DNA from: Lachnospiraceae bacterium
Lineage (GTDB): Bacteria; Bacillota; Clostridia; Lachnospirales; Lachnospiraceae
Assembly: GCA_024695145.1 (NCBI GenBank)
Contig: JAILIS010000039.1
Span: 3,300-67,299 of the forward strand
Direction: 5' to 3'
Length of the DNA: 64,000 nucleotides
Both the position numbers and the translations under genes were made by a program. The notes under the pieces were generated by a model that made no database searches, was not told the origin of the DNA, and was given only the letters and a program-made list of their open reading frames with translations. Below are positions 45,131 to 54,257 of this stretch, piece by piece. Within the stretch, counting starts at the first letter, position 1. The number at the start of each line of letters is the position of its first letter.

Positions 45131-45814
45131 ATGAACAGATTCAAAAGGGCCGTCGCCGTCATAATACTCGCGGTATCAGTTATGGTTCTTCTTGCAGGCT
45201 GCAGTGCAAATATCAATGTATCAACGCGACCTGATAACGATGCGCCCGCCGGCTCCGCATCTTCCGATGACTCTATGCCCGAAGAAGATGGCAGCACGGA
45301 TGAAGAAGTCCCTCCCCGTGATCAGGGAATATGGTTTATGGGCGGACTTGTAAGTGATGAAAAAGGCTTCTACATGAAGGTGGCCATTTACAGGCTGGAC
45401 GGTGACGGAGTTGCCGTAGTAACGGACGGAGAAGATATATATTACGGCGAATATGAGACCAAAGACACCGGGTTTGATGACGGGACGCCGTGGACACTTA
45501 TCAAGGTCGGAGGTAAACAGTTCGGTTACTATTTCGGTGACAATAATGACAGCTTTATCGTAGATAATGATAACAACAGGATCAAAGCGGTCGATATGGA
45601 TGAAGCGGCCGGCATGGAGCTGTTTGAGGCAACCGACATGAATGACGATTTTGAGGGAGATATATCTTTTCTCGAGGAACAGTCCGGCGTCAGGGAATTT
45701 AAAGATTTCGACGACATCATCGCACATCTTGAGCCCGGCCAGGGATATGCCTACATCAAACTTACGGGAAGCGACGTTTTTGTTCAGTCCCGGTCGCTTA
45801 TCGCGATTCCGTAA
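45131..45814 (+). CDS. lipoprotein, unknown function
   Basis: The signal peptide carries the lipobox VLLAGCSA. A GGAGGA SD lies upstream. The 3' end overlaps the convergent regulator gene by 31 bp. Confidence 0.6.
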   Translation: MNRFKRAVAVIILAVSVMVLLAGCSANINVSTRPDNDAPAGSASSDDSMPEEDGSTDEEVPPRDQGIWFMGGLVSDEKGFYMKVAIYRLDGDGVAVVTDGEDIYYGEYETKDTGFDDGTPWTLIKVGGKQFGYYFGDNNDSFIVDNDNNRIKAVDMDEAAGMELFEATDMNDDFEGDISFLEEQSGVREFKDFDDIIAHLEPGQGYAYIKLTGSDVFVQSRSLIAIP

Positions 45815-46413
45815 TGTCTGGCCATCAGGGCGAGCTCCAGCCTGCTCCTGTAGCCGGATTTTTGAAGCATGTTCGTTATGTGCATCTTGACGGTCGATTG
45901 GGCCATGGAAAGGTTTTCCGCTATCTCCTTGTTGGAAGCACCTGTCACGAGTTCCTTTAATACCTCAGTCTCCTTATCGGTGAAATCCGTACTCATTGTA
46001 TTTCCGATCGGAACCTCGACCTGCTCGCTTGGGTAAACGATCTCGCCCGACATGACCCGGTCCATTATCTCCTGAATTGACTGTTCCTGGATCTCTTTCT
46101 GCCAGAAGCCTTCAACTCCTGTCTCTTTCGCCCTTTTTTCATATGACAGTTCAGGCATGGAAGTAACCACGATTATCTTCACATCAGGCTTTGCGATCTT
46201 GATCATCTCCGACGCATCAAGTCCGTTCATACTGCCCGGAAAAAGCACATCCATCAACACCAGATCGGTATCGTTTTTTTCAATATACTTTACCGCCTGC
46301 AAAGCTGTCGGAAACGATGCGGCAAGTTTATAATCCCCGGATCTTTTTACGGTATTTTCAAAAATCTCGCGTATCATCCGGAAATCCTCGGCGATTACCA
46401 CTTTATATGACAT
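45784..46413 (-). CDS. LuxR/NarL-family response regulator
   Basis: The receiver is VVIAEDFRMIRE...LVLMDVLFPG. The C-terminal HTH is TDKETEVLKELVTGASNKEIAENLSMAQSTVKMHITN. I set the start at MSYKV (46413). Confidence 0.85.
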   Translation of the reverse strand: MSYKVVIAEDFRMIREIFENTVKRSGDYKLAASFPTALQAVKYIEKNDTDLVLMDVLFPGSMNGLDASEMIKIAKPDVKIIVVTSMPELSYEKRAKETGVEGFWQKEIQEQSIQEIMDRVMSGEIVYPSEQVEVPIGNTMSTDFTDKETEVLKELVTGASNKEIAENLSMAQSTVKMHITNMLQKSGYRSRLELALMARHYGIAISDRD

Positions 46414-47659
46414 AATCCTCTCCTTTCGGAAGTGTGATCCTGAGGGCAAAATCAGGCGACTGTTCTATCTCCATCTTACCGCCGGCATTTTCGACCTCGC
46501 GCCGCAGATTTGCAAGTCCGCCCAAAGGTTCCGCTTCGATACCGGCTGCCTCTCCGTCATCTGTAAGAACGATGAGGTACTCATTCGCTTTGTCCGATAC
46601 TGCTATCGTAACCGTTGTTCCGTTAGTATGCTTTAACGTATTTCCAACCTGCGCCGAAACAGCAGCATCCACTATAGGAATGAGCCTTCTGTCTTTGGGC
46701 AGCTCGCCGATGATGCTGAGATTGATACCCAGCCTGTCGGCTTCTTGGGATATAACATAGTACGGCAGTTCCCATTCTTCCGGCTCATCATTTGTCAGGT
46801 GATCCACATTATCCTGCCAGAATTCGAGCATCCTCTTCCTGTCTACGCTTCCCGGTGAGTGCAGATATCTTTTTGCGATGAGGATACTCTGACCGATATT
46901 ATCGTGAAGTGCCGTTTTGAGTTTAAGCAGTTCACGATTCATTGACACGTATTCGATCGTTCCCATAAGGGCCTTGAGGCGGCTGTTGAGAACCCTTGCC
47001 TTTTCACGTTTTGCCTCAAGTTCCCGGGTCAGCTTAAACTCCGTGCCGATCTCCGAAGCAGTTAATTCATACATATCGGTCCCGTTTATCGATACCTGCC
47101 TTCGCATGACGTTATATATCCCGTTATCGCCTATATTTACGATCGCGCTGTTATCGTCTTTTATGGCACCCTCTCCGCCGTATGCCTTTATCTTTTCCCA
47201 GAACGCATTTGCATCGGTAACGGTTTCACCGGAAATGTCGCGTGAAAGCTGCTGCATCGTTTCGTTTACAAGGACAGGCACTCCGCTCGGCGTATAATAC
47301 GCAAGTCCTGCAGGCAGTCTGTCAAATGCTTCTTTAACCGACATGGATGATATGTTCGCGCGTTGCCAGGCGACAATACTGTATAGCATATATGCGCCAA
47401 ACAGCAGGAAACCGATATACGCGGCCACAAGCACAAAGACGGGAACATCGAACATATCCAGATCCTCCTGCTGGTACATTATCATGCCCTGATATAACCC
47501 GAATGCCACTGCCGCTATCAGGCACGTACAGACAAACTGCATATTTCTTCTGCCGGCATCAAGCATCCTGATTATGCAGTATATATAAATGATAAGGACA
47601 AGTGTCGCAAAAACGAGCAGATATCCCCTTTCGATCTCCGAAAGTGATGTGTAGGTCAT
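46403..47659 (-). CDS. sensor histidine kinase (HisKA_3-like H-box)
   Basis: It has TM helices at the N-terminus and an intervening sensor domain. The H-box is LKTALHDNIGQS, the N-box is VGNTLKH and G2 is GGLANLRREVENAGG. The start overlaps the upstream stop as ATGA. Confidence 0.75.
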   Translation of the reverse strand: MTYTSLSEIERGYLLVFATLVLIIYIYCIIRMLDAGRRNMQFVCTCLIAAVAFGLYQGMIMYQQEDLDMFDVPVFVLVAAYIGFLLFGAYMLYSIVAWQRANISSMSVKEAFDRLPAGLAYYTPSGVPVLVNETMQQLSRDISGETVTDANAFWEKIKAYGGEGAIKDDNSAIVNIGDNGIYNVMRRQVSINGTDMYELTASEIGTEFKLTRELEAKREKARVLNSRLKALMGTIEYVSMNRELLKLKTALHDNIGQSILIAKRYLHSPGSVDRKRMLEFWQDNVDHLTNDEPEEWELPYYVISQEADRLGINLSIIGELPKDRRLIPIVDAAVSAQVGNTLKHTNGTTVTIAVSDKANEYLIVLTDDGEAAGIEAEPLGGLANLRREVENAGGKMEIEQSPDFALRITLPKGEDYVI

Positions 47660-52533: not shown

Positions 52534-52577
52534 TTATGATTCCTCCGCATCAATGATCCGGCTGAGGCAGTGTCTCC

Positions 52578-54257
52578 TTAGTCCCACCAGCCGCTTCCGT
52601 AATATGTTGTGATCTTGTTATCTTCAAGACCGACCTCGAATACCCCGACCAGTGCCGGGCCGTTCTGCATGTATTGATCTATATCTTCATTCATGAGCTT
52701 TTTGTTTCTTATTATCCATTCATAGGGCGTGTCACCGTTTTCATAGTTTCCGAAGAATTCAGTCTCGGCTGACTTATCAAAAACCGTTTGGTCCGTGACG
52801 AGAAGATCGGCCGTAACGGACTCGGCATACGTGATATACGGTATTGTAACAGATACGCCGCGAAGCATCACACCATCCTTTAGTTCATCGATCGTTGCCC
52901 CGTCGTACATATAATACCAGTACCGGTCACCGGTGTATGATCCCGCATATTTCATATAGGCATCCTTAAATCCCGCATCCTTCACTTTGGCAAGCATCTT
53001 TTCAGCCTCCTCCTTCGAGGTGAACATTCCCGCGGTCGCTACGTAGTAAGGCTCCGGATTGAGCTGCGAAAAATCAGGTGTATAGACTACAGGTTCCCTT
53101 ACAAATCCTGCCGCCTCAAGTTTTTCAACAGTCGGCATGCACTTATCCGCCGACTTTGCAGATAATACGATCACGCCGTAATAATCCTGCTCCTTAAGTG
53201 CACCGATATACTGGTTGCCGCCAAGACTTCCAAAAGACGCTGAATCAAGCTCCACTTCATCCATTGTGATAACATGGATCTCCCGGTCCGTTATCCGCCT
53301 GTATACTTCATGTTCCGGAAGCAGTCCGGCCGCATCGGTCCCTTCAACATCAAGGGTGAGCTCATTTCCGTCTGTATTAAATCCGCCGGAAAACTCTATC
53401 GGCATTCCTCCGTTCCCCAGCATATTACCTGCGAATTCGAATGATCCGTCATGAAAATCACATCCTCCGGCCATATAGGAAACCTCCTGACCGGGATCTT
53501 TCCTGTAAACATACATATCGGAGCCGGAAAACTCAACATAAACGCTGTTGTTATCATCGCCGTATACCCACAGGCCCTGTAACTGCTCAGGAGCGTCTGC
53601 TTTGTCATTATTCAGGTATGAAAAAACATCCTCGACACGTTCATCCTTAAGAAACAGCCTGCTGTCATCATTTTCCGGTACAAGGAAACCCTCATGATCA
53701 AATCCTTCAAAAACAAGTCCGTCGTCTGTAAGAGTGATCGTGCCCTTATGCCCGGCGTCCCAGTATTTACCGGCATTTGACATGACTGAGAACCGCAGTT
53801 CATTGACAGTTACCGTATCACCGTCCGTACTCGTCATCTCATCCGCATCATATGGGATGAACTCGCTTGCCCAGAAGGTGTACGCATCAAGACTTTCATA
53901 ATCCTCAGGCATTGCCTGCCCGCAATATGCATAAAGATTGTCACCGAAAGGAACAACATTCATAATATAGAATTCATCGTTACCGTCTTCATCGCTGTAA
54001 TGATAGCTGTATTTGCCCGCCATGCGCTGTGCGAGTGACTTCTGCCCGTCGGTTTTACTGGCCTGTTTATCTTTCTTGTTTTTCCTGTTTTTCTTTTCGG
54101 GCTTTTGTACGTCTTCGTTGTCATCTTCTGTTTTTTCCGCTTCCCTGCCGGCGTTTGCCGGTCCGGACCCGGGATTGTCTTCGGAAGCCGACCCGCAGCC
54201 TGCAAGAAGAATTGAGCTTATAAGGCAAATGATTATTGTAAGCAGTGATTTTCGCAT
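52578..54257 (-). CDS. lipoprotein with a Lys-rich tract and a possible SPOR-like segment (559 aa)
   Basis: The lipobox is ILLAGCGS, followed by KPEKKNRKNKKDKQ. The later segment YYVATAGMFTSKEEAEKMLAKVKDAGFKDAYMKY resembles a SPOR repeat. Confidence 0.55.
   Translation of the reverse strand: MRKSLLTIIICLISSILLAGCGSASEDNPGSGPANAGREAEKTEDDNEDVQKPEKKNRKNKKDKQASKTDGQKSLAQRMAGKYSYHYSDEDGNDEFYIMNVVPFGDNLYAYCGQAMPEDYESLDAYTFWASEFIPYDADEMTSTDGDTVTVNELRFSVMSNAGKYWDAGHKGTITLTDDGLVFEGFDHEGFLVPENDDSRLFLKDERVEDVFSYLNNDKADAPEQLQGLWVYGDDNNSVYVEFSGSDMYVYRKDPGQEVSYMAGGCDFHDGSFEFAGNMLGNGGMPIEFSGGFNTDGNELTLDVEGTDAAGLLPEHEVYRRITDREIHVITMDEVELDSASFGSLGGNQYIGALKEQDYYGVIVLSAKSADKCMPTVEKLEAAGFVREPVVYTPDFSQLNPEPYYVATAGMFTSKEEAEKMLAKVKDAGFKDAYMKYAGSYTGDRYWYYMYDGATIDELKDGVMLRGVSVTIPYITYAESVTADLLVTDQTVFDKSAETEFFGNYENGDTPYEWIIRNKKLMNEDIDQYMQNGPALVGVFEVGLEDNKITTYYGSGWWD

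Follow-up and report, generated by a model that had tools for sequence, protein, structure and literature searches.

A predicted seven-helix pseudo-histidine kinase in a conserved three-gene core beside variable surface-protein genes of Lachnospiraceae

The DNA analyzed here, hereafter the window, is a stretch of 64,000 nucleotides (nt) from a Lachnospiraceae bacterium (assembly GCA_024695145.1, contig JAILIS010000039.1, positions 3,300 to 67,299 of the forward strand). The table of its open reading frames (ORFs) places six genes together on the minus strand, which code in this order for three large lipoproteins (LipoA, LipoB, and LipoC), a protein with seven transmembrane (TM) helices (TM7), a histidine kinase (HK), and lastly a response regulator (RR). 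Our favored reading, which we consider reasonably probable, is that the region codes for an autoregulated three-component system together with its local output genes, the latter being exchangeable cassettes of surface proteins. It builds on the gene structures, the predicted folds and the motif states of the proteins, the conservation of the TM7-HK-RR triad, its adjacency to surface genes, and the conservation and placement of a DNA site upstream of these genes.

Conservation and neighborhood of the triad

Related loci came from a genome scan seeded with LipoC (n = 31), a metagenome scan seeded with TM7 (n = 20), and look-ups of exact proteins (n = 12), and genes were mapped across them by tblastn or blastp. 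The TM7, HK, and RR genes follow each other in the same order in all 14 loci in which the three could be called, and this holds down to a TM7 identity of 25 to 30% (loci L057, L058, L064, and L065). The 4-nt overlap between TM7 and HK is kept in nearly all triad loci, with ATGA also serving as the overlap in relatives at 25 to 35% identity, and RR is 62 to 81% identical across related triads. The complete order LipoA-LipoB-LipoC-TM7-HK-RR is repeated in none of about 60 related loci. An initial sequence-only reading of this DNA, made by a model that ran no database searches, had seen in the six-gene operon a candidate for an undescribed multi-component module; we rejected a fixed synteny of the six genes, as no second locus has that order and the lipoprotein families are also found without the sensors.

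What varies is the company of the triad. In all triad loci with enough flanking sequence, the neighbors code for lipoproteins or for surface proteins with leucine-rich repeats (LRR), immunoglobulin-like (Ig) domains, Flg_new domains, or a beta-helix. They are LipoA-, LipoB-, or LipoC-like or other lipoproteins without a Pfam family in L006, L021, L026, L039, L045, and L054, a beta-helix lipoprotein in L064, acidic proteins with signal peptides in L057 and L058, and giant LRR/Ig/Listeria-Bacteroides-repeat/fn3 proteins in L003, L043, L046/L048, and L065. Seen from the lipoprotein side, the triad is no farther than 10 kb from a LipoC homologue in L006, L021, L026, and Butyrivibrio sp. VCD2006 (L003/L030); L014 shows just the 3' end of an RR gene at the contig edge, and L050 just a truncated TM7. 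Up to 10 kb from the LipoC homologue, no triad gene was found in L001, L004, L009, L012, L013, L015, L018, L020, L022 to L024, and L029, and these 12 are among the loci with long flanks on both sides. Homologues of LipoA and LipoB can also stand alone (L061 to L063). The better-supported view of the conserved unit is thus a TM7-HK-RR core beside variable surface-protein genes, with the lipoproteins as exchangeable cargo.

TM7, a family of seven-helix pseudo-histidine kinases

TM7 (47656-49293; 545 amino acids [aa]) was modeled with AlphaFold on family relatives taken from a scan of cluster representatives. The model (predicted local distance difference test score [pLDDT], 90.5) consists of a TM bundle, a small beta domain, a helical hairpin (residues 320 to 418), and an alpha/beta domain (residues 423 to 538). 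Foldseek returned 41 PDB matches for it at an E value of ≤1e-3, and the ones that we inspected (DesK, KinB, CpxA, SrrB, YF1, phytochrome kinase modules, and the LvrB hybrid regulator) are either ChpT or the dimerization-phosphotransfer and catalytic (DHp-CA) modules of histidine kinases. The best match was 4qpk (ChpT), with an E value of 3e-6, a TMt of 0.51, and a probability of 1.00, and the DHp-CA modules of DesK, KinB, CpxA, and SrrB reached, like ChpT, a probability of 1.00 at a TMt of 0.4 to 0.5.

The sequence of this kinase-like part has lost the residues on which phosphorylation depends in kinases of the HisKA_3 type. Where these carry ELHD--GQ, TM7 has NRLYD-IA, and the H-box position (Y363) is Tyr in 43 and Phe in the other 2 of 45 diverse relatives. 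No His is conserved in residues 318 to 545, no column of which holds more than 7 His among the 45 relatives, and neither the N box nor the G1 or G2 box was found in their cytoplasmic part. In profile searches, TM7 itself scores 25.5 bits against HisKA_7TM (PF16927), under the Pfam cutoff of 28.6, this family was matched by 34 of the 45 relatives at an E value of ≤0.01 (best, 6.6e-12), and a kinase domain was matched by none. An hhalign comparison with the adjacent HK is colinear at low stringency, with Y363 opposite H252 and "MDA" opposite the G1 "DDG," at a nonsignificant E value of 0.09. The TM domain itself contains near-invariant polar residues (T149, N150, H153, E240, and E251). We call TM7 a pseudo-kinase because it combines a predicted DHp-CA fold with Tyr at the H box and the loss of the ATP boxes. 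These predicted fold and motif states, which bear out the first reading of the gene as a pseudo-kinase with seven TM helices, support TM7 as a pseudo-histidine kinase and indicate a state of the whole family instead of a local decay.

This family is large. Among 1.84 billion cluster representatives, TM7 found 2,128 (clustered at 50% identity) at an E value of ≤1e-3 and 740 at ≤1e-30, nearly all of them 530 to 560 aa long and aligned from end to end. Databases list them only as "hypothetical protein" or "7TM domain-containing protein," and those members whose source is named come from Lachnospiraceae, Butyrivibrio included. In the literature that we searched, we found no description of the family or of an equivalent system, and HisKA_7TM was named only in two census or review papers. 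As described by Pfam, HisKA_7TM is the N terminus of histidine kinases; TM7 would be a subfamily of it whose sequences lack a recognizable HisKA or HATPase_c domain.

In L050, the TM7 gene (244-1182) ends after about 283 residues and is directly followed by a gene for a 280-aa protein and the LipoC homologue, with the candidate operator described below retained upstream. In L006, too, LipoC is preceded by this 280-aa gene. The L050 system appears to have been rearranged or to have decayed.

Two known proteins come close to the predicted architecture of TM7. DivL of Caulobacter has a histidine-kinase fold with a Tyr at the phospho-acceptor position, its catalysis is dispensable, and it controls the kinase CckA; the fold has been repurposed for binding a phosphorylated regulator (PMC4211667). 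TM7 (by its predicted structure) and DivL share a kinase fold with a Tyr and, in our reading, the pairing of a pseudo-kinase with a genuine kinase. Among the differences, the N, G1, F, and G2 boxes for ATP are retained in DivL and lost in TM7; the Tyr has been called "unique" to DivL (PMC4211667). DivL is also a PAS-rich cell-cycle protein of alphaproteobacteria that is not encoded beside its kinase, whereas TM7 has a seven-TM domain, is translationally coupled to the kinase, and belongs to Lachnospiraceae. The structures nearest to the cytoplasmic module of TM7 are those of ChpT (4qpk, 4fpp, and 4fmt), in which a DHp hairpin is joined to a CA-like domain without ATP binding; ChpT is soluble and keeps a phosphorylatable His.

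The kinase and the response regulator

At its N terminus, HK (46403-47659; 418 aa) has three TM helices, whose loops are very short (about ten residues). It has a PAS-like cytoplasmic segment with a conserved MSVKEAFD-LP-GL motif and no extracellular domain. Its transmitter is of the HisKA_3 type, and the motifs LH252DNIGQ, N340-TLKH, DDG368-369, and GGLANLR are invariant in five orthologues. The CA profile matches VraS, DevS, DosT, and DesK (E values of 7e-8 to 4e-4); the Pfam HATPase_c score is 18.9 bits, which is under the cutoff, and NCBIfam gives a weak match to LiaS. By its conserved His, N, G1, and G2 motifs, HK is an intact kinase. RR matches the Pfam families Response_reg (68.3 bits) and GerE (60.1 bits), and its best NCBIfam match is NarL. 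The pocket residues of its receiver domain are complete (E9-D10, D55, T84, and K106), and by these matches RR is a response regulator of the NarL/LuxR type, so that the assignment of a kinase and a LuxR regulator from the letters alone is sustained. The longest ORF for RR spans 45784-46449; its most likely start is the ATG at 46413 (45784-46413, 209 aa), which is preceded by the ribosome-binding site AAAGGAGAGG, overlaps HK by 11 nt, and coincides with the Met at which the alignments of homologues begin.

The order in which TM7 and HK would act can be drawn differently. TM7 could lie downstream of or parallel to the kinase, as a DivL-like reader of the phosphorylated RR, a phosphatase-type partner, or a scaffold, with the PAS-like domain of HK sensing a cytoplasmic cue. 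The change from His to Tyr matches DivL in this respect (PMC4211667), and the PAS-like region of HK has a conserved motif. The large conserved seven-TM domain of TM7, with near-invariant polar residues as is typical of a membrane sensor, speaks against this arrangement, which we regard as unlikely, without separating the two readings. We retain TM7 as the putative receptor that acts on the kinase. Contact between two kinases has a precedent in RetS, which modulates GacS by binding it directly.

A candidate operator upstream of TM7 and surface-protein genes

A comparison of the intergenic sequences in front of TM7 and of the adjoining surface-protein genes gave a shared 19-bp sequence, TAGACnTTTGGnGGTAGYG. 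The copy in the window, TAGACGTTTGGTGGTAGCG (54314-54332, minus strand), precedes the LipoA ATG by 56 nt and is an imperfect 7-4-7 inverted repeat, a degenerate form of the palindrome TACCnCC-AWWT-GGnGGTA. A putative -10 box, CATAAT, follows 18 nt downstream (54290-54295, minus strand). Ten aligned sites share the invariant core AC-TTTGG-GGTAG-G within intergenic sequences that cannot otherwise be aligned, and all ten have a -10-like hexamer, with A2 and T6 invariant, 18 to 19 nt downstream, so the site overlaps the -35 position. Full palindromes, TACCGCC-ATTT-GGGGGTA, are present in L003, upstream of the gene for a 1,400-aa BspA-type LRR protein, and in L046/L048.

Exact matches to TTGGNGGTAGYG number 16, spread over 14 loci, where by our own estimate chance would give about 0.7 in roughly 0.75 Mb of locus sequence, and all 16 lie 41 to 158 nt upstream of the start of TM7 or of a surface-protein gene, on the same strand as the gene. 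Once near-identical contigs are collapsed, they represent about a dozen independent lineages. In L060, the operator precedes an array of lipoprotein genes that includes a LipoA homologue, with no sensor gene within 10 kb, and in L012 a near copy precedes a pair of LipoB-like and LipoC genes; both cases argue that the lipoprotein genes are targets within a regulon. Within the 64 kb of the window, the exact core occurs once, in front of LipoA, and up to one mismatch gives two matches, against 0.29 expected.

We propose from these sequence patterns that the operator is the binding site of the NarL-type RR of the same operon. The consensus of the NarL heptamer is TACYYMT, and the 7-4-7 layout of heptamers resembles that of NarL sites. 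In PMC4886647, the term TACYYMT occurs together with NarL.

Several observations on the site stand beside this. The second match in the window, a core with one mismatch (TTTGGCGGTATTG) at 56506-56518 on the minus strand, falls inside an ORF of the beta-lactamase family (55897-56889) and is probably a chance match. In Butyrivibrio sp. VCD2006, the RR gene is separated from the lipoprotein genes by 688 nt, which are filled with 6.5 tandem copies of an 85-bp unit that has GCGGCCGC-containing palindromes (L003 5269-5822, the same as in L030). In L036 to L039, L044, L045, L049, L050, and L053, the right half-site GGGGGTA is at the same time the left arm of a hairpin, GGGGGTA-GTGA-TACCCCC, that is followed by a run of seven T. 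These hairpins upstream of TM7 (e.g., L039 1030-1075) have folding energies of -12.8 to -16.5 kcal/mol and resemble intrinsic terminators. Neither the copy in the window nor most of the other copies has such a hairpin.

The hairpins bear on a second alternative, that the lipoprotein and sensor genes are adjacent without any functional relationship and that the site belongs to another factor or acts mainly as a terminator or insulator. In its favor are the lack of a conserved six-gene order and the terminator-like hairpin that a part of the motif forms in copies upstream of TM7. The site is nevertheless tied to triad loci and their immediate neighbors far above chance, most copies (that of the window included) have no hairpin, the -10 box keeps a fixed distance, and LipoC and TM7 are separated by a 10-nt gap in which neither a promoter nor a terminator was found. 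With these observations against it, this alternative appears to us quite improbable.

The lipoproteins

All three large lipoproteins have a lipobox (LAGC in LipoA and LipoB and LTGC in LipoC). Together with a fourth, convergently encoded lipoprotein, they have mature isoelectric points of 4.1 to 4.3 and a content of F+W+Y of 11 to 14% (4.2 to 4.3 and 12.7 to 13.7% for the large ones), so the description of the three as acidic and rich in aromatic residues in the sequence-only reading is correct. Paralogy of the three was rejected, as their alignment is limited to signal peptides and linkers.

LipoA (52578-54257; 559 aa) is the only one with a recognizable domain, and our searches revealed nothing beyond the SPOR-like stretch that had already been noticed as a possibility. 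The SPOR domain (residues 359 to 434; nt 52956-53183) has a Pfam score of 23.5 bits against a cutoff of 21 and is present in 32 of 37 family members, and the family profile weakly matches the SPOR structures of CwlC and DamX. Nothing else was found in Pfam, NCBIfam, or PDB profile searches. The domain sits between an N module (residues ~72 to 346) and a C module (residues ~440 to 559), and the N and C halves are on separate proteins in L006, L014, and L019. LipoA is thus predicted to bind peptidoglycan through SPOR. It shares this domain with CwlC, DamX, and FtsN and differs from them in that its SPOR lies between two uncharacterized modules of a lipoprotein, outside any amidase or division-protein context.

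LipoB (51049-52533; 494 aa) and LipoC have no sequence relatives in Pfam, NCBIfam, or the PDB. LipoB consists of an N module (residues 74 to 290) with an FG-GAP-like DVDSDGNDEL motif and a C module (residues 295 to 494), which are found apart in other proteins; some relatives of the N module match FG-GAP. In some relatives of the C module, the N module is replaced by PdaC (DUF4163) and DUF3298, the pair that forms the ectodomain of RsiV and PdaC, with sub-threshold Pfam scores. In Butyrivibrio isolates, the lipoprotein whose gene immediately precedes LipoC likewise has this pair below the threshold, and in both cases the two domains stand in their usual order. LipoA, LipoB, and LipoC of the window have no match to PdaC or DUF3298 in Pfam at an E value of ≤0.1.

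The longest ORF for LipoC (49304-51052) starts with GTG at 51052 and codes for 582 aa. An ATG start at 51043 (49304-51043, 579 aa) is likelier; it is preceded five nt upstream by AGGTGA, and in blastp searches the homologues align from residue 1 of this form. The AlphaFold model of LipoC (pLDDT, 85.4; predicted TM score [pTM], 0.80) is all beta and multidomain, and its strand pattern, as we read it, suggests a lipocalin-like N-terminal domain, a middle part like a propeller, a hairpin of helices, and a beta sandwich at the C terminus. A Foldseek search with the whole chain against PDB and BFVD gave only matches with a TM score of <0.25, to lipocalin-like proteins and beta-propellers, and the full-length members of the family match no Pfam family.

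The families comprise 68 proteins for LipoC, 46 for LipoB, and at least 142 for LipoA. Most relatives are unnamed metagenome sequences, and the sources that are named belong to rumen or gut Lachnospiraceae, Butyrivibrio, or Oribacterium; for LipoC, all source-named homologues and 30 of the 31 genome loci are from rumen Lachnospiraceae or Butyrivibrio. A LipoC homologue with 41% identity in L035 is on a contig (JAFZWD010000006.1) binned in a Bacteroidales metagenome-assembled genome, which is likely due to misbinning and possibly to gene transfer. In L011 (239-2281; protein P0066), a single ORF of 570 to 680 aa codes for the C-terminal portion of one LipoC homologue together with a LipoB N module and is either a natural fusion or the result of a lost stop codon; the gene order in this lineage is C then B. 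By their composition, the three lipoproteins are mosaics of shuffled modules and, apart from SPOR, members of uncharacterized families.

The lipoproteins might be a part of the sensor itself, as surface co-receptors or auxiliary regulators that relay envelope signals to TM7 and HK. RcsF, NlpE, LpqB, and YycH/YycI, which act on their kinases, are precedents. The genes appear to be cotranscribed with those of the sensors and lie upstream of them, an external partner would be sensible as neither TM7 nor HK has a sizeable extracellular domain, the SPOR domain of LipoA could report on the state of the cell wall, and relatives carry the RsiV-like PdaC and DUF3298 modules. The triad, however, adjoins cargo unrelated to these proteins (giant proteins of the LRR, Ig, and beta-helix types and further families of lipoproteins), every one of the lipoprotein families is found without it, and copies of the operator stand in front of lipoprotein genes, an array in trans among them, which points to these genes as targets. 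We judge the co-receptor role to be rather unlikely; the two roles, target and co-sensor, are compatible with each other. Of the initial suggestion of an envelope-surface sensing or remodeling system, the better-supported part is a remodeling of the surface under the control of a sensor, and a sensing machine that includes the lipoproteins is less supported.

Proposed mechanism and comparison with known systems

The system that we favor is a two-component system with an accessory pseudo-kinase, and we infer all of its mechanistic steps from sequences and models. The seven-TM domain of TM7 would perceive a cue from the membrane or, as we suppose, the envelope, and its dead DHp/CA-like module would set, presumably by contact, the balance between kinase and phosphatase activity of the cotranslated HK, which has no sensor of its own. 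HK would then phosphorylate RR on D55, and an RR dimer would bind the 7-4-7 TAGACnTTTGGnGGTAGYG site over the -35 region and, we assume, activate rather than repress the LipoA promoter. The output would consist of the three lipoproteins and, by read-through, of the sensor genes, which would amount to positive feedback. The lipoproteins, as exchangeable cargo, would be acidic, modular proteins of the envelope that are anchored in the membrane, LipoA being placed on peptidoglycan by its SPOR domain.

Some of our results weigh against this scheme. Homologues of LipoA, LipoB, and LipoC often have neither the triad nor the motif nearby. The site could belong to a different regulator; among the more distant triads, no operator was seen in the examined regions of L057, L058, L064, and L065, and L021/L054 have a variant. 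Since the half-site doubles as a hairpin arm in the copies described above, part of its conservation could serve termination. As for the pseudo-kinase, the C-terminal 230 residues of TM7 have no significant sequence match to the adjacent HK (profile probability of <1%) and none in the PDB.

The closest functional analogues of the proposed circuit are LiaFSR and VraTSR, three-component systems for envelope stress in Firmicutes, in which the genes of an accessory membrane protein, an intramembrane-type HisKA_3 kinase, and a NarL-type regulator follow each other in the order seen here and form an autoregulated operon, as proposed here. LiaF is presented in PMC3543457 as an accessory protein that controls the kinase. 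The components differ: TM7 is not LiaF-like, combining a seven-TM domain with a degenerate kinase module and matching no Pfam or NCBIfam family besides HisKA_7TM, HK has three TM helices and a PAS-like region, and the cargo consists of large lipoproteins or adhesin-like proteins and not of LiaI/LiaH-type proteins. The likeness is functional and positional only.

A broader proposal, which we find plausible without calling it probable, is that TM7 represents a very large undescribed class of seven-TM receptors that carry a pseudo-kinase with a His-to-Tyr change and no ATP boxes and are hard-wired by translational coupling to a dedicated sensor-less kinase. With a NarL-type regulator and the 7-4-7 operator, such a pair would be the principal switch through which Lachnospiraceae exchange their sets of surface lipoproteins and adhesin-like proteins. 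If true, the DivL-type Tyr substitution would have a second case, independent of the first and far larger. Accessory membrane proteins of two-component systems and isolated pseudo-kinases such as DivL are known already; a family of more than 2,000 clusters of seven-TM pseudo-kinases that is always paired with a real kinase was not found in the literature searched. To our knowledge, few circuits that regulate the surface are known in such bacteria. The proposed wiring of receptor, kinase, regulator, operator, and target genes can be tested, and it would place three large "dark" lipoprotein families in a regulatory context.

Layout and boundaries of the operon

The ORF table and the sequences of the junctions confirm the tight packing of six codirectional genes, with small corrections to the start coordinates. 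LipoA is preceded by the ribosome-binding site GGAGGG (54265-54270, minus strand) and separated from LipoB by 44 nt that contain a GGAGGA ribosome-binding site. LipoB and the longest form of LipoC overlap at 51049-51052, as the sequence-only reading had it, with the correction that the overlap reads GTGA and not ATGA; the other overlap claimed, at 47656-47659, is ATGA and joins the stop of TM7 to the start of HK. The 10-nt gap given for 49294-49303 agrees with the junction between LipoC and TM7.

No internal terminator was found in the operon by the promoter and terminator scan. Directly upstream of the operon promoter, at 54343-54370 on the minus strand, an inverted repeat forms a hairpin with a U-rich tail (GATCATGGTGTC-ACCG-GACTCCATGATC followed by UUAUUUAUU) and a folding energy of -17.4 kcal/mol (z = -3.3), which none of 200 shuffled sequences equaled. 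It probably terminates the upstream gene of the glyoxalase family and would thereby insulate the operon. Because no terminator is found inside and this hairpin lies just upstream of the promoter, the six-gene region looks like one transcription unit. Both the promoter and the hairpin were found by the comparative alignment and the analysis of repeats and folding, and the generic promoter and terminator scan picked neither. A riboswitch or leader RNA was rejected, as no Rfam family matched in 44900-55200 at an E value of ≤1.

The GC content and skew of the operon are ordinary for the window. The flanking genes are unrelated to it. One side has the genes of the glyoxalase and beta-lactamase families, a CPBP protease, and a MatE fusion, and the other a CDF transporter and FeoAB. 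PADLOC had no match for five of the six operon proteins or for the convergent lipoprotein, and RR matched only through a generic helix-turn-helix; with no specific match, unremarkable GC content and skew, and ordinary flanking genes, a defense system or mobile island was rejected.

The fourth lipoprotein gene (45131-45814, plus strand) codes for an acidic protein of 227 aa with the lipobox LAGC. As had been noted, it converges on the regulator and overlaps it; the 3' ends share 31 bp (45784-45814), no terminator was detected between them, and transcriptional interference or antisense effects are possible. No homologue was found in 35 LipoC-seeded loci (tblastn, E value of ≤1e-5) or in the ORFs of the 20 TM7-seeded loci (E value of ≤1e-6), and no copy of the operator was found upstream of the gene. 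It is a neighbor, and nothing ties 45131-45814 to the system.

The MatE fusion (57928-59676, minus strand) is a 582-aa protein that joins a MatE efflux domain to a C-terminal HATPase_c_2 domain like that of anti-sigma-factor kinases, which we consider an unusual architecture. A protein of the SDF-transporter type in L004 likewise carries HATPase_c_2.

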